This document shows, piece by piece, positions 40,371 to 63,187 of a DNA stretch of 64,000 nt. Numbering within the stretch: position 1 is the first letter of the stretch; each line of letters opens with the position of its first letter. Made by a program: the position numbers and the translations under genes. The DNA is from an uncultured Christensenella sp. (lineage in GTDB: Bacteria > Bacillota > Clostridia > Christensenellales > UBA1242). The stretch lies in the NCBI GenBank assembly GCA_949292875.1, contig CASFBJ010000008.1, forward strand, positions 4,547-68,546. The letters are read 5' to 3'. Under the pieces are notes generated by a model, which ran no database searches, was not told the DNA's origin, and worked only from the letters and a program-made list of their open reading frames with translations.

Positions 40371-41312
40371 ATGAGAGAAAAAAATATAGATAGTAATTAT
40401 GAAGTTTTTACAATAACAGATAATGAAGTAGGTAAAAGATTAGATGTAGTTTTATCAGATGTTTTTAGTGAACATTCAAGAAGCTACATAAAGAAGCTTA
40501 TTGATGAAAATTTTGTATTTGTAAATGAAAAATGTCAAAAAGCAGGTTATAAAGTAAAGTATGGTGATATAGTATATATAGAGTTCCCTGTAGAAGAAAC
40601 TTATAGTTTGGAGGCACAAAATATTCCTTTAGATATTGTTTATCAAGATGAAGATATTGCAGTAATAAATAAAGCAAAAGGAATGGTAGTTCATCCTGCT
40701 GTTGGTAACACGGAGGGAACTTTAGTAAACGCAATTCTGTATCATATAAAAGATTTAAGCGGAATAAATGGTGAACTCCGTCCAGGAATAGTGCATAGGA
40801 TAGATAAGGATACTACAGGACTTTTAGTTATAGCAAAAAATGATATGGCTCATAGGTCATTAAGTGAGCAAATAAAAAATAAAACTTGCAAAAGAATATA
40901 TAAAGCTTTGGTCCACGGTGCGCCACCTAATAGTGAGGGTAGAGTAGTTACTTATATAGGTAGAAACCCGAAAGATAGAAAGAAAATGGCAGTTGTAGAA
41001 GAAAATGAAGGTAGACTTGCTGTGACTAATTATAAGGTTTTAAAAAAATATGCACATTTTAGTTTAGTTGAATTTTCTTTAGAAACAGGAAGAACTCATC
41101 AAATAAGAGTGCATTGTAAATATTTAAACATTCCTATTGTAGGTGATTTTACATATGGAGCACCAAAAAATAAGTTTGGAATAGAGGGTCAACTTCTTCA
41201 TGCTTGTAAACTTATTTTACAGCATCCACGCACAAATGAAATAATGACTTTTGAAGCGAAGTTGCCTAACTTTTTTCAAGATGTTATAGATAAATTAGAG
41301 AAAACAAATTAA
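40371..41312 (+). CDS. rluD: 23S rRNA pseudouridine synthase, RluA/RluD family
   Basis: S4 domain N-terminus, catalytic HRIDKDTTGLLVIAKN, GRTHQIRVH. Confidence 0.9.
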   Translation: MREKNIDSNYEVFTITDNEVGKRLDVVLSDVFSEHSRSYIKKLIDENFVFVNEKCQKAGYKVKYGDIVYIEFPVEETYSLEAQNIPLDIVYQDEDIAVINKAKGMVVHPAVGNTEGTLVNAILYHIKDLSGINGELRPGIVHRIDKDTTGLLVIAKNDMAHRSLSEQIKNKTCKRIYKALVHGAPPNSEGRVVTYIGRNPKDRKKMAVVEENEGRLAVTNYKVLKKYAHFSLVEFSLETGRTHQIRVHCKYLNIPIVGDFTYGAPKNKFGIEGQLLHACKLILQHPRTNEIMTFEAKLPNFFQDVIDKLEKTN

Positions 41313-42084: not shown

Positions 42085-42120
42085 TGGTAACTAAATGAAC
42101 AAATTTTTTGATATATTACA

Positions 42121-42156
42121 ATCTCATTGTCAGGATAAGACAGTGAGATTTTTTTT
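42121..42156 (+). terminator. Intrinsic terminator A at the chromosome/phage junction
   Basis: atctcattgtc-(7 nt)-gacagtgagat hairpin (one G-U pair) plus a T7 run. Confidence 0.75.
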
Positions 42157-42157
42157 C

Positions 42158-42190
42158 AGGTTCGTCTTAACTGGCGAACCTATTTTTTTT
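42158..42190 (+). terminator. Intrinsic terminator B at the junction
   Basis: aggttcg-(10 nt)-cgaacct hairpin followed by a-T8. It sits directly before the RBS of the first phage ORF. Confidence 0.7.
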
Positions 42191-42209
42191 GATTAAAGGA
42201 GGGAAGAAA

Positions 42210-42365
42210 ATGCTTACAAAAAAGAAACCAAGCATCTGTTCACAAATTGAACCTGAATTGAAAGCATTGGTTGTGGACTATGCAAAAAAAGAGTTCGGCG
42301 GAAATGAGAGTCTTGCGGTAAGAAAAATCATTGAAAAGTTTTTTGAAGCAAACAAAAAACAATAA
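42210..42365 (+). CDS. Small ribbon-helix-helix (CopG/Arc-like) DNA-binding protein, 51 aa (not in the ORF track)
   Basis: My translation: MLTKKKPSICSQIEPELKALVVDYAKKEFGGNESLAVRKIIEKFFEANKKQ. Beta-strand/helix/helix pattern. Strong RBS aaggaggg. Confidence 0.5.
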   Translation: MLTKKKPSICSQIEPELKALVVDYAKKEFGGNESLAVRKIIEKFFEANKKQ

Positions 42366-42406
42366 AACAAAAGCAATTAAAAAATGTATTTTAATGGAGG
42401 TATCAA

Positions 42407-42574
42407 ATGAAAAAATACAAAATTAACTTTTATTCAAAACTTCTAAACAAAAGAATAACAAAGGTTGTGGAAGATCCAAAAAATTATACCGATGCAATTA
42501 TTCTTGAAGTGATTGAAGAACCAAGAAGCATTTATCACAGACAATTAAGAATTGTTTTGGAGGTGAATGTATGA
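42407..42574 (+). CDS. Hypothetical 55-aa protein (not in the ORF track)
   Basis: RBS ggagg 6 nt upstream. The stop overlaps the next start (ATGA). Translation begins MKKYKINFYSKLLNKRITKVVEDPKNY... Confidence 0.35.
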   Translation: MKKYKINFYSKLLNKRITKVVEDPKNYTDAIILEVIEEPRSIYHRQLRIVLEVNV

Positions 42575-47947: not shown

Positions 47948-48385
47948 ATGAAATTCTTTGAACTTATAAAGCAATACAACAATACAAAATTCAGGTTGAA
48001 ATCAAAAATGAATGAAGAGGCAGAATTAAGGGAATTGTGTGCATTGCCAAAAACAAGTGATATGGGTGGAATGCCTGGTGCTCCAGGTTATAATGGTTCA
48101 CCTGTTGAAAAATTTGTGATTAGACTTGATGAATTAAAACAAGAACAAAACAAACTTAATTCCAAACTTGAAGACATAAGAAATGACATCATGCTTTTCA
48201 TTGACACACTTGATGATTACTTTGCAAGACAGGTTGTTGAATTAGTGGTATTTAGATTATCACCAAGACCGAACTGGAAACATGTTGCAAAAAGAATTGG
48301 TTACAGTGAAAGCGGTGCAAGAGCATTATACAAAACAAGTGCTTCAAAATTGGAAAATCTTGAATTGGAGGAATTAAAAAGATGA
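47948..48385 (+). CDS. ArpU/RinA/DUF1492-like sigma-70 region-4 type phage late transcription regulator
   Basis: C-terminal HTH-like segment ARQVVELVVFRLSPRPNWKHVAKRIGYSESGARALYKTSASKLE. Central GMPGAPG segment as in phage ArpU/RinA-type activators. Assignment from memory. Confidence 0.55.
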   Translation: MKFFELIKQYNNTKFRLKSKMNEEAELRELCALPKTSDMGGMPGAPGYNGSPVEKFVIRLDELKQEQNKLNSKLEDIRNDIMLFIDTLDDYFARQVVELVVFRLSPRPNWKHVAKRIGYSESGARALYKTSASKLENLELEELKR

Positions 48386-53021: not shown

Positions 53022-53804
53022 ATGCGGTTAGAACCAGGAAATGTTTACAACATGGATTGTATAGATGGCATGAAGCAATTATTGAAGCAGGGTATCACAG
53101 TTGATTGCATCATAACAGATCCACCTTACAATATAAGTGTTGAAGGCAAAGAGATTAAAAGAGATAAACCAAATACAAAAACCGCCAGGAAAACATCAAT
53201 CAAATTTGATTTTGGTGAATGGGATAAAATGGACAATGCAGAGTTTGAAAAGTTTATTGAAGAATTTGTTTCACTTGCATGTCAGTTATTAAAACCTGGA
53301 GGAGCAGTGTTGTGTTGGTTTACAAAAGAAAAAATAAGTTGGTTAGCAGATTTATTCAATAAGAATGGAATTAAAACCAAAACAATAATAACTTGGCACA
53401 AAACAAATCCAACACCACAATTTAGAATTACAAATTATCTGTCAGCAAGTGAATTTTGTTTTTATGGAATAAAAGAAGGCGGAAAATACACATTCAATTT
53501 TGAAAAGCAAAATGACATGCACAATGTGATAGATTATCCAAATGCTTCTATTTATGGCGAAACAGAGCATCCAACAGAAAAACCGCTATATATTATAAAT
53601 AAGTTGGTGCGAACACATACAAACGAAGGTGATTTAATTTTGGACTGTTTCATGGGTTCATTCACAACCGCAGTGTCTTGCCACAAATTACAAAGACAGT
53701 TTATAGGTTTTGAGAAAGATGCGAAGTTTTATGAAATGGGAAGTGCCAGGTTAAAGAAAGCACAATCACAATTAAGCATATTTGACATGGGGGTTAAGAT
53801 ATAA
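53022..53804 (+). CDS. DNA methyltransferase, beta-class (probably N6-adenine)
   Basis: Motif IV IITDPPYNI precedes motif I LILDCFMGSFTTAV. The HPTEKP motif is present. Confidence 0.85.
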   Translation: MRLEPGNVYNMDCIDGMKQLLKQGITVDCIITDPPYNISVEGKEIKRDKPNTKTARKTSIKFDFGEWDKMDNAEFEKFIEEFVSLACQLLKPGGAVLCWFTKEKISWLADLFNKNGIKTKTIITWHKTNPTPQFRITNYLSASEFCFYGIKEGGKYTFNFEKQNDMHNVIDYPNASIYGETEHPTEKPLYIINKLVRTHTNEGDLILDCFMGSFTTAVSCHKLQRQFIGFEKDAKFYEMGSARLKKAQSQLSIFDMGVKI

Positions 53805-54085
53805 TGCAATCAATTCTTCAAAAAAGAAAAGAGTGTTATATAACACATTCAACTGTTGGACTTCATAAGCATCACATCTTTGGTGGTGCTAACAGGAACA
53901 TAAGTGAAAAGAATGGGTTTTGGGTGTGGTTAAGATATGACCTTCACAACCTGTCAAATGATGGTGTCCACAATGATTATCAATTCAATTTGCAATTAAA
54001 GCAGAAATGCCAAAAAGAGTTTGAAAAAACACATTCCAGGCAAGAATTTATGAAATTGATTGGTAGAAACTATCTTGATTGGTGA
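53804..54085 (+). CDS. Conserved Cys/His-rich small phage protein (HNH/Ref-like?); last early gene before the late control region
   Basis: KECYITHSTVGLHKHHIFGGANRNISEKNGFWVWLRYDLHN..GVHN is a pattern I recall from many Bacillota prophages. The function is not established. Confidence 0.45.
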   Translation: MQSILQKRKECYITHSTVGLHKHHIFGGANRNISEKNGFWVWLRYDLHNLSNDGVHNDYQFNLQLKQKCQKEFEKTHSRQEFMKLIGRNYLDW

Positions 54086-54096
54086 AATTGTATCAC

Positions 54097-54124
54097 TTTT
54101 AGCAGGTTTTAGCACATTTTAGCA
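54097..54124 (+). promoter_or_regulatory. Three TTTTAGCA boxes with exact 10-bp phasing; candidate activator site
   Basis: ttttagca at 54097, 54107 and 54117. The boxes end 19 bp upstream of the extended -10. Confidence 0.5.
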
Positions 54125-54142
54125 GAACAAATAAAGAAGAAG

Positions 54143-54159
54143 TGTGATATAATTATAAT
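54143..54159 (+). promoter_or_regulatory. Candidate late promoter: extended -10 (TGaTATAAT) without a good -35
   Basis: tgtgatataat at 54143-54153 and a second tataat at 54154-59. The -35 position reads gaacaa. Confidence 0.5.
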
Positions 54160-54280
54160 GTGCAAAAGTATAAGAAAAAACAATCGTAGCAATTAAGTTT
54201 GCCGAAAATCTTTGCGAAAGTAAGAACGGAAAAAGCAGTAAGAAATTACTTTGTGAGTTTGATTGTTTATAGCATAAAAC

Positions 54281-54313
54281 AAAAACAAGTTGGTGATGCT
54301 GACTTGTTTTTTT
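54281..54313 (+). terminator. Intrinsic terminator within the late leader
   Basis: aacaagt-(11 nt)-acttgtt hairpin (extendable by A-U pairs) plus a T7 run. Confidence 0.72.
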
Positions 54314-54436
54314 ATGGTGTTGTTCTGCATCTGTATGATACCTCGCAGATAAAGAATAGGGGAAACCGACTGCCAACATTAAAAATGCGGTTAAGGTGGG
54401 TGAATTTAATGGCAGAAATCAAATAAAGGAGTATTT

Positions 54437-54649
54437 ATGGAAGAAAAAGACATTTTGAATAGATTTGTATATCACAAACCAAAAGAAGATGATGCAATGA
54501 AATTTGTTACAATAAGACAACAGGCAAAACAATTTGCAGACATAATAAATGGGGTTGTGCCAGAAGGTAGAGAAAAAAGTTTGGCAATAACAAAACTTGA
54601 AGAAGTTGTGATGTGGGCAAATGCAGGAATAGCAAGAAGGGGGGAATAA
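54437..54649 (+). CDS. Small helical phage protein (70 aa); possible Acb2/Tad1-hairpin-like cyclic-nucleotide sponge
   Basis: RFVYHKPKEDDAMKFVTIRQQAKQFADIINGVVPEGREKSLAITKLEEVVMWANAGIARR. The F-x-YH-x-P ... REKSLA-x-TKLEE-x-MWAN-x-IA pattern is recalled from that family. Not verified. Confidence 0.4.
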   Translation: MEEKDILNRFVYHKPKEDDAMKFVTIRQQAKQFADIINGVVPEGREKSLAITKLEEVVMWANAGIARRGE

Positions 54650-55043: not shown

Positions 55044-55060
55044 CCTAAAACAACCTAAAA
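55032..55060 (+). repeat. Second copy of the organizer-gene iteron pair
   Basis: gaagaaaaaTaacctaaaAcaacctaaaa compared with gaagaaaaaCaacctaaacaacctaaaaa at 46142-46170. Confidence 0.6.
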
Positions 55061-55085
55061 TAAGCAAATAGGTTGTTTTTATTTT
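55047..55085 (+). terminator. Intrinsic terminator upstream of terS
   Basis: caaccta-(11 nt)-taggttg hairpin (extendable by A-U pairs) plus a T-run. Confidence 0.7.
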
Positions 55086-55109
55086 ATATAAAAATACAAA
55101 GTTAGGAGG

Positions 55110-59734: not shown

Positions 59735-59930
59735 TGACAAAGAAATTGCACAGAAATTAAAACCTGAATTAAAAAGGTTTAATTTGACACATGAACAGAT
59801 TACTGCAATAGCAATAGCAATAAAAAAGAATCCACAACACTTGGACAAATGTGTTGAATATCTAAAAAAAGCAGATGATAAAACATCAGGTGAAGAAATA
59901 CAAACTGAAATCATTGACATCTGCTATTAA
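59727..59930 (+). CDS. Hypothetical small protein (67 aa)
   Basis: ATG at 59727 follows RBS ggagga and overlaps the upstream stop. Confidence 0.4.
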   Translation: MIDDKEIAQKLKPELKRFNLTHEQITAIAIAIKKNPQHLDKCVEYLKKADDKTSGEEIQTEIIDICY

Positions 59931-59940
59931 AAATAAACAA

Positions 59941-59970
59941 AAAGCAACTAGAACACATAGTTGCTTTTTT
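59941..59970 (+). terminator. Intrinsic terminator inside the head module
   Basis: aaagcaacta-(7 nt)-tagttgcttt hairpin plus ttt. Confidence 0.72.
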
Positions 59971-59986
59971 AATACCTGGAGGCAAG

Positions 59987-60943
59987 ATGTATAACATTAA
60001 AGAAATTGTTGCTGACCTGGAACTTGATATCAAAATTTTGATAAAACAAGCAGTTTTTAATGTGTTTAAGGCAGAAAACTTGATGAAGACAGTTACTGCA
60101 TTGATTGATAAGGAATTACAACCAGTAAAAGACAAACAGGTTAAAGACAGAGTAAAGAAAAGTTTAATTAAGTTCACAATTAAGCAATGGAAAACAATTT
60201 GCCATTCACTGCATCTTGGCGAACCATTATTGTTGATAGGTTTAGCAATACACAACCGCAAAACACCTGTTACAGACCTTCAAAAGAAGTCATTGCAGGT
60301 GGCGGTAAGCAAAAGCATAAACATGACAATAAAAACAAATGCAAATGCTATAAACAACACACTTTCAAATCTTGCAGATAGTTATCCAACAACCAAGATT
60401 GCACATCAACCATTGGACAGTCAGGTTGAGATGTGGCAAAGACATGAAGACCAGGAACAGATGGTTGACAGATTAAAACAACAAACTGACCTGGTTATTG
60501 TAAGCAGTCATGCAAACTGTTCTGCAAGATGTGCAAAATGGCAGGGTAAGGTGTTGAGTTTAAGCAACAAGTCAGGCATGACAACAGATGGCAAAACAAT
60601 TTATCCATTAAAACAGGCAACAGATGTATTTGTAACAACAAAGGCAGGCAGAACCTGGAAGAATGGATTGCTTGGGTTTAATTGCAGACATAAATTAATC
60701 CCTTACAAACCTGGAATGCGACAACCACATGTTAGCGAAGCACAAAGAAAGCATGAATATGCCATTGAATTAAAGCAAAGAGAATTTGAAAGACAAATAC
60801 GAAAATGCAAAACAGATGGCAAACTTTTGGAAGGTGCAGAAGCACAAAAACAAAGGTTAAAAGCAAAACAGTTAACACTTGAATATCAAAAGTTCTGTGT
60901 TGATAATGGCAGAGCATTCTACAAATCACGAATAGTGATATAA
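59987..60943 (+). CDS. Minor capsid / head morphogenesis protein (Mu F, SPP1 gp7 or minor-capsid-2 like)
   Basis: SSHANCSARCAKWQGKVLSL and GFNCRHKLIPY motifs. Located in the head module, downstream of the portal gene (three small ORFs intervene). Confidence 0.68.
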   Translation: MYNIKEIVADLELDIKILIKQAVFNVFKAENLMKTVTALIDKELQPVKDKQVKDRVKKSLIKFTIKQWKTICHSLHLGEPLLLIGLAIHNRKTPVTDLQKKSLQVAVSKSINMTIKTNANAINNTLSNLADSYPTTKIAHQPLDSQVEMWQRHEDQEQMVDRLKQQTDLVIVSSHANCSARCAKWQGKVLSLSNKSGMTTDGKTIYPLKQATDVFVTTKAGRTWKNGLLGFNCRHKLIPYKPGMRQPHVSEAQRKHEYAIELKQREFERQIRKCKTDGKLLEGAEAQKQRLKAKQLTLEYQKFCVDNGRAFYKSRIVI

Positions 60944-60964
60944 GCACCTGGTTGGTGCTTTTTT
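60942..60964 (+). terminator. Intrinsic terminator
   Basis: aagcacc-(5 nt)-ggtgctt hairpin plus tttt. Confidence 0.65.
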
Positions 60965-61024
60965 AATTGGTATAACCAACAGAAGTTGTTTATATAAACA
61001 AAATTATTTTTTAAGGAGGTAAAT

Positions 61025-61267
61025 ATGGACAATGTATTTCTTGAACTTGTTGAAGAAACTTTGAAGCAACATGGCATTGATGCAACAGACATGGCTGATG
61101 AAGAAAAAATCAGGCAATTTGAGCAACTTGCAAACAAAGACACAGAAGTTGCAGAAGAAGTTGTTGAAAAGGTTGCAGAAGAAGCGGAAGCAACTGGCAC
61201 AGATGAAGATCCTGATGCTGAACAACCACTACCAACTGGCACTGTCAGTCCAACAAAATTAGTGTAA
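61025..61267 (+). CDS. Acidic 80-aa protein carrying a diverged copy of the shared N-terminal module
   Basis: MDNVFLELVEETLKQHGIDATDMADEEKIRQFEQL aligns with the N-termini of the ORFs at 58450 and 59375. RBS aaggagg. Confidence 0.5.
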   Translation: MDNVFLELVEETLKQHGIDATDMADEEKIRQFEQLANKDTEVAEEVVEKVAEEAEATGTDEDPDAEQPLPTGTVSPTKLV

Positions 61268-61317
61268 TAAATAATTTTGTTTAATTAGTCAACAAAGACT
61301 CAAAAAAAGGAGCAATT

Positions 61318-62873: not shown

Positions 62874-62891
62874 TGAAGGAGGTATTAAAAT

Positions 62892-63074
62892 ATGCTATTA
62901 GAAACAGTTAAAACATATAAAGATAAATACACAGGCGAAATCTTCAAAACAGGTTCAACAAGAACAGTTGAAGCAGAAAGGGGCAAAGCACTTATTGCAA
63001 GAGGTGTTGCAGTTGAAGCAGAAGACAAGAAAACTAAAAAAGCAGAAAAGAAAACAGAAGAACCTGCTGAATAG
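62892..63074 (+). CDS. Small Lys-rich hypothetical protein (60 aa)
   Basis: RBS aaggagg. C-terminal KKTKKAEKKTEEPAE. Confidence 0.4.
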   Translation: MLLETVKTYKDKYTGEIFKTGSTRTVEAERGKALIARGVAVEAEDKKTKKAEKKTEEPAE

Positions 63075-63097
63075 TCCTGTAAATTATAAATTAAACA

Positions 63098-63127
63098 AAA
63101 AGGCATTGAAATACAGTGCCTTTTTTA
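63098..63127 (+). terminator. Intrinsic terminator after the capsid gene block
   Basis: aaggcatt-(7 nt)-agtgcctt hairpin (one G-U pair) plus a T6 run. Confidence 0.68.
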
Positions 63128-63187
63128 TCACTATTAAAGGAAAATCGCAGTTCAATTCTGCAAATAGTGCAATAAATGGAGGAAATT

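Follow-up and report, generated by a model that had tools for sequence, protein, structure and literature searches.

What turns on the late genes of a temperate phage, and why should a terminator stand between their apparent promoter and the first of them? The question is raised by a 351-bp gap (54086-54436) that forms the border between the early genes and the packaging/head genes of a temperate phage or prophage, the host of which is an uncultured gut Clostridia bacterium, a low-G+C Gram-positive. The window, as we call the whole stretch of DNA that was analysed, is 64 kb long. The elements in the gap, their order and their conservation are directly computed, and based on them we tentatively read the gap as a control region of the late operon, in which phased repeats would be followed by a promoter, a terminator and then the packaging/head genes.

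The gap and its relatives

The DNA is 67% A+T. Since close relatives carry indels of 1 nt and of 8 nt inside the gap, we read it as non-coding. Two open reading frames in it were rejected as coding, one on the minus strand (54119-54379) due to the indels in close relatives and its absence from other clades, and one on the plus strand (54199-54426) that has the same indels, is missing elsewhere and is without a family match. The initial annotation held the gap to be the only sizeable non-coding one in the phage, which proved incorrect, as three others above 250 bp lack a long ORF:

59735-59986, gap without a long ORF
60944-61317, gap without a long ORF
62874-63175, gap without a long ORF

The early gene block upstream spans 12 kb (42.2-54.08 kb). 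The 64-kb window contains no tRNA, and megablast of the phage DNA against 50,697 phage records returned no match.

Relatives were found via homologues of the protein encoded at 47948-48385, the candidate regulator described below, and fall into ten clades, which are interrelated, and their counts are not independent. In all ten the order is the same: 10-bp-phased repeats come first, then a double -10 (single in L103) and a short leader, and an intrinsic terminator stands ahead of the first late gene. The promoter-then-terminator layout, likened at the outset to lambda pR'-tR', is thus real and its position is conserved in the ten clades. Viral contigs searched directly with the regulator gave no match, and the small terminase led to one contig, L042, the end of which was dismissed as a genome terminus since the contig starts at a swapped first gene and reflects an assembly break. 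Exact triple-box matches in viral contigs were unrelated perfect 10-bp tandem repeats rather than homologues.

Phased repeats and predicted promoter

54097-54104, 54107-54114 and 54117-54124, plus strand, three direct repeats TTTTAGCA with centres 10 bp apart, the putative operator at which the regulator would bind
54125-54130, plus strand, -35 position, GAACAA, a 1/6 match to TTGACA
54143-54159, plus strand, promoter core TGTGATATAAT + TATAAT, with the extended -10 TGn+TATAAT at 54145-54153
54160-54174, plus strand, predicted start region GTGCAAAAG, start at about 54160-54166, including a -10-like TATAAG at 54169-54174

The three boxes start at 54097, 54107 and 54117 in a 10-bp phase, exactly as first described, and lie at about -63 to -36 relative to the predicted start. 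As a word TTTTAGCA is not enriched (15 copies versus 10.3 expected in the 64-kb window), and it is the only 8-mer in the window that is repeated at both +10 and +20 (0.0 in 200 shuffles). The pattern TTAGCA-N4-TTAGCA-N4-TTAGCA, with up to three mismatches, matches the window in this gap only. Retention of the boxes in relatives, on which the initial annotation had let its reading depend, is seen as phased repeats in all ten clades, and the repeat sequence drifts with divergence of the regulator, as listed here by identity of the regulator to the window protein:

100%, TTTTAGCA three times
74%, TTTTAGCG / AATTAGCG / TTTTAGCA
67%, TTTTAGCG / AAAAAGCG / AATAAGCA
47%, TTTTAGCA then AATTAGCA twice; variant L074, four AATTAGCA
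42%, four phased repeats, the last ones TTTTAGCA and AATTAGCA
38%, TTTTGCA three times
35%, ATGTCGTGYT twice
32%, AGTAAAAAAA five times
detectable by profile only (L106), TGAGCAGGTT three times, plus TAAGCA

Two spacings predominate between the last repeat and the first -10 hexamer, one of 23-24 bp and one of 35 bp, differing by about one helical turn; in L103 there are 19 bp. The boxes are in all likelihood sites of the regulator.

The extended -10 TGaTATAAT at 54145-54153 with its poor -35 was likewise found as annotated. A second perfect TATAAT (54154-54159), absent from that annotation, abuts the first. The block TGnTAnAnT(n)ATAAT is present in nine of the ten clades, L103 having a single TGtTATAAT and then TAAAT. 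Read by eye, the sequence 3' of the -10 block is GC(G/A)AAA in 8 of the 9 variants compared, and most clades have a -10-like hexamer 9-10 nt beyond, a kind of match that arises readily by chance in DNA of such A+T content. We consider that the promoter probably lies upstream of the terminator. Its design, taken from the beginning to be activator-dependent, fits the published Ltr/Alt kind, in which direct repeats precede a -10 and the -35 is weak (PMC3753634, PMC13123087). Other clades carry TTGTAA or TTGTAG at the -35 position, 17 bp from the first -10 hexamer, and in several the promoter is near consensus (TTGTAA, 17 bp, TGnTATAGT), so that initiation alone is perhaps not the sole step under control.

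The candidate regulator

47948-48385, plus strand, candidate late regulator gene (145 aa, pI 8.9)

The candidate regulator consists of an N-terminal helical hairpin and a C-terminal helix-turn-helix resembling sigma region 4. It matches phrog_36 'transcriptional regulator' (E 1.8e-12) and, weakly, the Alt-like phrog_2198 (E 0.006). Its AlphaFold model has a pLDDT of 86, and in PDB the C-terminal ~60 aa are matched best by chains of SigA region 4, at a probability of 0.9-0.97 and an rmsd of 2-3 A with an E of only 0.7-2. Searches with the family profile find proteins of DUF1492 and DUF722 (E ~1e-5), to which hhalign aligns it over ~120 columns with a probability of 97% and an E of ~1e-11. By these alignments the protein appears to be related to LtrB/DUF1492 remotely, below the family threshold. 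That it is ArpU or RinA proper could not be upheld, as NCBIfam and Pfam gave no match and hhalign to RinA returned a probability of 3.6%. It shows no similarity to known antiterminators, whether Q, N or other.

The gene ends 5.7 kb before the boxes, amid replication genes, and a homologue is found 4-6 kb upstream of every related control region; regulator and repeats are inherited together in phages that are otherwise unrelated. Between the window phage and the L067 group, the proteins detectably shared are limited to the regulator (47%), a VTT-domain protein (38%), a DUF6291 protein (30%) and a methylase (23%). The large terminases of the two have 24% identity, and still the boxes, the promoter and the leader core are kept. 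As the regulator is, besides three weakly conserved early proteins (23-38%), the sole protein common to the two most distant groups with the same boxes, it is likely the trans factor of the boxes. The earlier proposal of this protein for that role therefore gains ground, given that the box sequence changes as the regulator diverges.

The second proposed trans factor, the neighbouring 93-aa protein, fared differently. It had been called Cys/His-rich, which holds for His (seven residues) but not for Cys (only two). As its homologues lie in replication modules by SSB/early genes in 34 other phages, and as it is missing from the L067 group, which keeps the same boxes, we do not consider it the regulator. 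Its gene was also discarded as a marker of the late border, since SSB or other early genes follow it in 34 loci. A PDB sequence search with this protein found nothing.

Predicted terminators in the late operon

54281-54313, plus strand, T1, predicted intrinsic terminator (A-tract, stem of 10-14 bp, seven T)
55047-55086, plus strand, T2, terminator-like hairpin between a 130-aa gene and terS (55110)

The arms of T1 are AAAAACAAGT (54281-54290) and ACTTGTTTTT (54302-54311), and the seven T lie at 54307-54313. Its predicted folding energy is -17.4 kcal/mol (z = -4.4), a value equalled by 0 of 200 shuffles, and that of the core stem without the A/U extension is -9.6 kcal/mol. The initial annotation had placed a strong terminator here, about 120 nt before the next start codon; the place is right and the distance is 124 nt (start codon at 54437), whereas "strong" was generous wording for an A/U-rich hairpin. 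A simple consensus terminator scan missed T1, as it is A/U-rich and its loop exceeds 8 nt. T1 is the first terminator-like hairpin on the plus strand since the early gene block began: none is predicted in that block and five are predicted in 54.28-63.1 kb. A hairpin with a U-run occupies the T1 site in every clade (-9.8 to -16.2 kcal/mol), the stem sequences differing, and the 8-nt insertion of relative L058 sits in the T1 loop. We regard it as highly probable, judging by fold and conservation, that T1 is functional.

T2 lies only 23 nt from the start of terS, leaves no room for a promoter before that gene and is conserved in L046, L054, L058 and L063. The conserved T1 and T2 would fit read-through of the lambda Q type and do not prove it.

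Leader RNA and the first late gene

54175-54270, plus strand, additional leader domain of ~100 nt present in some clades only, with ACAATC (54180-54185) and GATTGT (54261-54266) as its closing segments
54321-54358, plus strand, hairpin P1 of the structured leader
54360-54415, plus strand, conserved core with a candidate pseudoknot
54364-54368 and 54388-54392, plus strand, P2, AACCG pairing with CGGTT
54370-54375 and 54410-54415, plus strand, P3, CTGCCA pairing with TGGCAG
54395-54400, plus strand, Shine-Dalgarno-like GGTGGG
54409-54426, plus strand, putative five-codon mini-ORF, ATG GCA GAA ATC AAA TAA
54437-54649, plus strand, first late gene, 70-aa protein with an Acb2/Tad1 hairpin domain (PF24729, E 3e-20)

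A leader of about 120 nt, listed at first as part of the layout, finds no support as an essential one: the extra leader domain occurs in the window group and in the L072/L091/L093 group only, and in all other clades, which are the majority, the terminator follows the -10 block after just 5-27 nt. Downstream of T1, a hairpin at the P1 site is predicted in 8 variants, with unrelated stems (-9.2 to -16 kcal/mol, z -1.3 to -3.8). The leader core that follows is present, by sequence profile search, in one copy per phage and always at the control region, and it is missing in L100 and L103. RNAalifold on a MAFFT alignment yielded a weak nested model (-6.9 kcal/mol) that is broken by L094; as the MAFFT columns are off by one in L094 and L106, the leader helices were scored per sequence. 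The P3 duplex reaches -9.4 to -11.1 kcal/mol (z -3.4 to -4.9), and P2 is weaker. Covariation in relatives, suggested earlier as a check on the leader, amounts to one compensatory change in P3 (G-C to A-U) between the two main groups. Pairing of the P1 loop with GGTGGG was unsupported, its register differing in each clade.

Rfam 15 at permissive thresholds gave a best E of 0.29 for the gap and nothing over the leader element in two relatives. Pattern scans for the leader core in genomes and metagenomes returned the same phage groups plus chance matches in high-G+C genomes, and L086 and L087 were dropped as carriers because of weak resemblance (E 0.04) in ORF-poor DNA. The hairpin and candidate pseudoknot may constitute a new cis-acting RNA of phage late operons.

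The mini-ORF starts inside P3 and ends directly at AAGGAG (54426-54431), the ribosome-binding site of the following gene. Equivalent ORFs of 2-13 codons are found in other clades, and L063 has at the same start a 35-codon membrane-type ORF. The 70-aa product of the first late gene also matches 'Acb2 homolog 43' (E 0.0015). The slot of this gene is swappable: with no change in the DNA upstream, relatives have at precisely this place a 92-aa or an 89-aa DUF6275 gene.

Comparison with known late promoters

The Ltr superfamily comprises the families RinA, ArpU, LtrA, LtrB/DUF1492 and LtrC (Quiles-Puchalt et al. 2013, PMC3753634), and its members bind at 2-4 direct repeats that precede the terS promoter and determine specificity (PMC3753634). 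Given the remote homology of the window regulator to proteins of DUF1492 (LtrB) and DUF722, boxes and promoter together are, judged by sequence, a late promoter of the known Ltr/Alt kind. Like the Ltr proteins (~130-150 aa, pI above 8) the regulator is small and basic (pI 8.92), its modelled C-terminal domain resembles sigma region 4 as theirs does, and its presumed sites are direct repeats that stand at the early/packaging border, track the regulator in sequence and precede a sigma-A-type -10 whose -35 is weak. Unlike the published cases, in which the regulator gene lies immediately upstream of the repeats and terS, it is encoded kilobases away in the window and in its relatives; it matches no ArpU or RinA model and its homology to DUF1492/DUF722 is remote. 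The 8-bp boxes at a strict 10-bp phase, the double -10 and the structured leader without an Rfam family are further differences.

In phi13 the Ltr-dependent start was mapped at P23, where the repeats span -107 to -42 and the TATA box occupies -15 to -5 (PMC13123087). The phi13 sequence reads TATAAT, a leader of ~30 nt, a 10-bp hairpin with a T-run (at ~+27) and the ribosome-binding site of the first late gene, which is the promoter-then-terminator order of the window. The Ltr papers do not discuss a promoter-proximal terminator (PMC3753634, PMC13123087), and the word "terminator" occurs 0 times in the phi13 paper. A terminator between the repeats and the first late gene is seen in the ten clades, in phi13 (LtrC-type), in phi11 (RinA-type) and in the DUF1492 phage L113.

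The resemblance to the lambda Q/pR'/qut/tR' system lies in an intrinsic terminator closely following the promoter, in a long late operon with more terminators inside it, in a promoter-associated DNA site for a phage protein (proposed in the window) and in -10-like hexamers beside or just after the -10. Those of the window, TATAAT at 54154-54159 and TATAAG at 54169-54174, may correspond to the sigma-dependent promoter-proximal pause element of the lambda type, although A+T-rich DNA readily yields hexamers of this sort. In contrast to lambda, in which the site lies between -35 and -10, the boxes are upstream of the promoter, the host is a low-G+C Gram-positive and the resemblance is one of layout only. 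Of 20 phage ORFs in 42.5-61 kb that were scanned, ten of them by PHROGs only, none gave a match to a Q-like family.

In the Lactococcus phage TP901-1, as cited in PMC3152322 and PMC13123087, Alt binds a row of imperfect direct repeats that cover -76 to -32 of a late promoter ahead of terS, a position comparable to that of the window boxes. There is no real homology between the two proteins (hhalign probability 0.2%), and the hairpin before terS in TP901-1 has a broken T-run. As its long leader (~480 nt) carries tRNA genes, TP901-1 is only loosely comparable. In the Bacillus phage phi29, as cited in PMC3152322, p4 is an activator of the late A3 promoter, which lacks a -35; p4 resembles the window in being bound upstream of such a promoter, and differs from it in being an unrelated protein with an inverted-repeat bent-DNA site at -58 to -104 and no leader terminator.

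Proposed mechanism and alternatives

We propose that the regulator would bind the three phased boxes on one face of the DNA helix and from there drive host sigma-A RNA polymerase at the extended -10 promoter (54143-54159), transcription presumably starting near 54160-54166, and that the transcript would then meet T1, if active as predicted. As T1 would also end the 12-kb early block, the late genes would be silent until the regulator acts. In the reading that we favour, polymerase started here under the regulator would become terminator-resistant, as under lambda Q, and would pass T1, T2 and the later hairpins; once past T1 it would transcribe the structured leader (hairpin, candidate pseudoknot, Shine-Dalgarno-like motif and mini-ORF) and then the late genes. 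Binding to repeats and dependence of late transcription were shown only in other members of the superfamily (PMC3753634). We put the whole explanation, a late control region with regulator-dependent read-through, at rather less than an even chance; the read-through itself, which is what we above all infer, is possible rather than probable. The wider proposition that regulators of the Ltr superfamily also load onto polymerase at a promoter beside their repeats and let it read through a promoter-proximal terminator, a sigma-r4-like protein thereby acting like the unrelated Q, seems to us unlikely.

It is conceivable, though somewhat doubtful, that the regulator only activates: it would recruit polymerase, and T1 would be a leaky attenuator or insulator that stops early-operon read-through and basal transcripts while a fixed fraction of unmodified polymerase passes. 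The published work on Ltr, RinA and Alt all describes activation via repeats (PMC3753634, PMC3152322, PMC13123087), the regulator has no homology to antiterminators, partial read-through is plausible at an A/U-rich terminator with so modest a core stem, and U-run hairpins within late operons can serve RNA stability or expression ratios. Yet a terminator placed after the promoter cuts activated as much as basal transcripts and is nevertheless kept in ten clades and in phi13, and with a second conserved terminator before terS the losses would multiply along a high-output operon. The lack of terminator-like hairpins in the early block also speaks against activation alone and for regulator-dependent read-through.

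The RinA papers, in which the terminator is put before the promoter, suggest another arrangement, as the RinA-dependent 5' end of phi11/80alpha is downstream of the terminator (PMC3152322), which fits a terminator that merely ends the early operon. Transposed to the window, the regulator-dependent start would lie downstream of T1, and the upstream extended -10 would be a separate, perhaps constitutive promoter making a short RNA of ~150 nt here and ~40 nt in relatives. Indeed the phi11 gap has repeats, a promoter-like site and a terminator in an order matching that of the window, its 5' end lying 23 nt before terS, after the terminator and >155 bp from the repeats (PMC3152322). However, no promoter-like element is conserved downstream of T1 among the ten clades, the hairpin is only 18 nt (L103) and 34 nt (L100) from the start codon, and the sequence of the short RNA is not conserved, whereas the conserved -10 block, the 17-bp -35 of several clades and the helical phasing with the repeats favour the upstream promoter; in phi13, too, the mapped start is upstream of the hairpin (PMC13123087). 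We regard this arrangement as improbable.

That the repeats are instead a packaging site (pac/cos of the terminase small subunit) or replication iterons, with no part in transcription, is very improbable: pac sites typically show short repeats in phase close to terS and the gap does sit at the border of the packaging module, but the same boxes are kept with different small-terminase families and large terminases of 24% identity, the repeats vary with the regulator, two genes lie between the boxes and terS, and the L042 end that had seemed to fall in the gap is an assembly break rather than a genome end.

Biological meaning

The timing of particle production, host lysis and DNA transfer by a prophage is set by its late-gene switch, which in Gram-positive bacteria is credited to Ltr-type activators. 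In the window and its relatives, the terminator that follows the presumably regulator-dependent promoter appears to be a conserved part of the switch. The Ltr/Alt kind of promoter is already known; the promoter-then-terminator layout recurs in related and in well-studied phages, where it was previously unremarked. As the same order can be read in phi13, the start of which is already mapped, the question of an antiterminator is directly testable in staphylococcal phages that are tractable in the laboratory. The gap also carries a conserved structured leader without a described family, and directly behind the switch lies a slot in which an Acb2/Tad1-like anti-defence gene gives way to other small genes. 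Should the terminator be merely a leaky insulator, the region would be an ordinary, well-preserved case of a known kind of promoter; if the Q-like reading is true, it would account for a puzzle from published work, namely the dependence of RinA on sequences that lie >155 bp upstream of the 5' end under its control.

Results

The prophage starts at ~42.2 kb of the window, whose G+C is 26-35% and whose host genes include rpoB/rpoC-size ORFs and an rluD-like gene (40371-41312). Its early block, on the + strand, encodes an exonuclease, an Erf-like annealing protein, NinB, RusA, a DnaB helicase, the regulator, SSB, primase, a methylase and a 93-aa protein, and the control region (54086-54436) is followed, in order, by genes for a 70-aa Acb2/Tad1-hairpin protein and a 130-aa membrane protein, terS (55110), terL (Terminase_6N) and an SPP1-type portal. 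Among named genomes the element was found only in a Clostridia MAG from water-deer rectum. In related phage contigs of ~37 kb the early block begins with a small ribbon-helix-helix gene, immediately preceded by a gene for an rve-type (DDE) recombinase (L063 2934-3983; L067 4338-5402); the equivalent window position (42100-42570) holds host-side genes and two terminators instead, and therefore the recombinase is elsewhere or the prophage ends here. More distant clades carry reverse-transcriptase (RVT_1) and S-adenosylmethionine synthetase genes (L067 1-627 and 14468-15553; L094 8420-9529; L097 12856-13935), with the synthetase gene immediately 5' of the late control region.

The elements described in the initial annotation are all present: three boxes, TTTTAGCA at 54097, 54107 and 54117, an extended -10, TGaTATAAT (54145-54153), its -35 position occupied by GAACAA, and a predicted terminator hairpin of A-tract, stem and T-run (T1, 54281-54313; -17.4 kcal/mol, z -4.4); the next gene starts at 54437. 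The annotation had overlooked that the first -10 is directly followed by another perfect TATAAT (54154-54159). As a single word TTTTAGCA is not enriched within the window; the phased triplet is unique in it and occurred in none of 200 shuffles. T1 was recovered by a custom scan and not listed by the consensus scan, because of its long loop and A/U-rich stem. The gap is nearly identical in 20 contigs that share identical flanking proteins with the window, the few differences being 1-nt indels and one 8-nt insertion in the terminator loop, from which it follows that the gap is not coding.

Further clades were reached through homologues of the regulator, and additional contigs through DNA patterns from the leader. 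Ten clades have the same order of elements before the packaging genes.

Order of elements, 5' to 3'
1. Phased direct repeats
2. TTGTAA or TTGTAG as -35 in several clades, with 17 bp to the first -10 hexamer
3. TGnTAnAnT, then ATAAT
4. GC(G/A)AAA
5. Short leader, 5-27 nt, except in the window and L072 groups (about 105-125 nt)
6. Hairpin and U-run
7. Ribosome-binding site, then first late gene

A ~100-nt extra leader domain (54175-54270), closed by ACAATC/GATTGT, is common only to the window and the L072/L091/L093 group, the other clades being without it. The phased repeats are kept in all ten clades, and their sequence drifts along with divergence of the regulator.

Repeats by identity to the window regulator
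100%: TTTTAGCA, three copies
74%: TTTTAGCG / AATTAGCG / TTTTAGCA
67%: TTTTAGCG / AAAAAGCG / AATAAGCA
47%: TTTTAGCA and two AATTAGCA; four AATTAGCA in L074
42%: four phased repeats, the last ones TTTTAGCA and AATTAGCA
38%: TTTTGCA, three copies
35%: ATGTCGTGYT, two copies
32%: AGTAAAAAAA, five copies
Profile match only (L106): three TGAGCAGGTT and TAAGCA

Between the L067 group and the window phage, the proteins detectably in common are confined to four, namely the regulator (47% identity), a VTT-domain protein (38%), a DUF6291 protein (30%) and a methylase (23%), and the large terminases are 24% identical; therefore the control region travels with the regulator rather than with the packaging genes.

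The regulator (47948-48385; 145 aa, pI 8.9) is predicted to fold into a long helical hairpin and a C-terminal domain of three to four helices, whose best structural matches are to sigma-A region 4, with good probability and weak E-values. It has no match in Pfam or NCBIfam. Its family profile aligns over ~120 columns, at 97% probability (hhalign), with DUF1492 and DUF722 proteins, DUF1492 corresponding to LtrB, family III in the classification of late transcriptional regulators by Quiles-Puchalt et al. (PMC3753634). Of the sigma/ArpU/RinA-like identity first proposed, the structural matches favour the sigma-like end, and this protein is the likely factor; kinship to RinA was not borne out, as hhalign found no relationship to phi11 RinA or TP901-1 Alt. 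The His-rich 93-aa protein, also put forward as a regulator, is a poor candidate: in 34 other phages its homologues belong to replication modules, and it is absent from phages that have the same boxes. This protein (phrog_7566; 53804-54085; 7 His, 2 Cys) has no Pfam match and no PDB sequence match; its gene lies directly 3' of the DNA methylase gene in the window and L063, and among replication genes elsewhere.

Between T1 and the first gene the leader is predicted to form a hairpin, P1, found in eight variants with unrelated stems, followed by a conserved core within which two predicted helices cross. P2 (AACCG with CGGTT) is weakly supported; P3 pairs CTGCCA with TGGCAG (in the second main group, UACCAAC with GUUGGUA) and has good support both in the individual sequences and from one compensatory change between groups. 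In the core loop lies GGTGGG (GGAGGG in L097); 8-11 nt further on, an ATG or TTG starts an ORF of 2-13 codons, the end of which falls at the following ribosome-binding site. From this same codon L063 has a 35-codon membrane-type ORF. L100 and L103 are without the leader element, which is therefore optional, and no Rfam family matches it. Possible roles are those of a stabiliser, in translational coupling or as an aid in passing later terminators. A sequence resembling the core (GGGGAACAACCGATTCCCAACATAGGGAAGGGTTAGGGTGGG) occurs in two metagenome contigs with few ORFs and 40-42% G+C (L086 24-63; L087 6336-6375), where it forms a simple nested hairpin; as the profile E-value is 0.04, the resemblance is likely due to chance.

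Discussion

A predicted T1 hairpin is present in every clade, each time with a different stem sequence, and its persistence despite these differences argues for selection on structure. A search of the + strand of the early block (12 kb, 42.2-54.08 kb) found no terminator-like hairpins, whereas five lie on the + strand from 54.28 to 63.1 kb, T1 and four with U-runs between late genes.

Terminator-like hairpins between late genes
55047-55086, + strand: T2, 23 nt before terS, conserved in the L063 group
59943-59965, + strand
60942-60960, + strand
63101-63121, + strand

Thus T1 is the first stop for early transcription and is also downstream of the late promoter. We tentatively prefer a mechanism in which, by analogy with lambda Q, polymerase modified with the help of the regulator would read through T1, since this best accounts for a terminator kept after the promoter and for the further terminators, and also for the near-consensus promoter in several clades. 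It is also possible that T1 is a leaky insulator, which agrees with the literature, where Ltr-type proteins are known solely as activators. A third option, with the late start lying 3' of T1 as was mapped in phi11 (PMC3152322), is unlikely here: in L103 and L100 the hairpin and the start codon are just 18 and 34 nt apart, and that stretch has no conserved promoter-like element.

Studied phages offer parallels. The phi11 gap between rinA and terS (L109 1341-1526) has a window-like order of TGGCAGT repeats, a promoter-like site (TTGATA-18-GATAGT, TATTAT adjoining), leader, intrinsic terminator (GGGTTGGCTGATTATAGCCAATCC and T6) and terS; the RinA-dependent 5' end was mapped just after the terminator, and according to its authors RinA requires sequences >155 bp upstream of that end (PMC3152322). 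In phi13 (L115 3980-4145), three 18-bp repeats, TTGATG, 18 bp and TATAAT are followed by a ~30-nt leader, a 10-bp hairpin with T-run (about +27 to +60), a ribosome-binding site and the first late gene. Its Ltr-dependent promoter P23 was defined experimentally, with the TATA box at -15 to -5 of the start and a reporter ending at +50, and no terminator is mentioned (PMC13123087); the published start lies upstream of the hairpin, and the reporter end cuts it. In L113, a DUF1492 phage, repeats and TATAGT precede a long leader, and 12 nt lie between the terminator that follows and the ribosome-binding site of a terS-like gene. In TP901-1 the 576-bp alt-terS gap (L110 2135-2376) contains, inside the late leader, a clear tRNA-Lys gene (55 bits in Rfam), a second tRNA called by ARAGORN only and a third T-arm-like motif; these tRNA-like elements are absent from the record's annotated features for that stretch.

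The window boxes lie at about -63 to -36 of the predicted start; the comparable sites of TP901-1 Alt are at -76 to -32 (PMC3152322), those of phi13 Ltr at -107 to -42 (PMC13123087). The boxes and promoter fit a known kind, the Ltr/Alt-type late promoters, with the protein of 47948-48385 as their likely factor. What is new relative to these promoters is the distant position of the regulator gene, the double -10, the conserved predicted terminator after the promoter and the unclassified leader RNA.

The first gene after the control region (54437-54649) encodes the 70-aa Acb2/Tad1-hairpin protein, whose family consists of sponges for cyclic-nucleotide defence signals. Near-identical relatives (the comparison took in L054, L058 and L060) can have in its place, exactly from the start codon on, a 92-aa gene without assigned function or an 89-aa DUF6275 gene. 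The first late-gene position appears to be an exchangeable slot, perhaps for anti-defence genes, under the late promoter.
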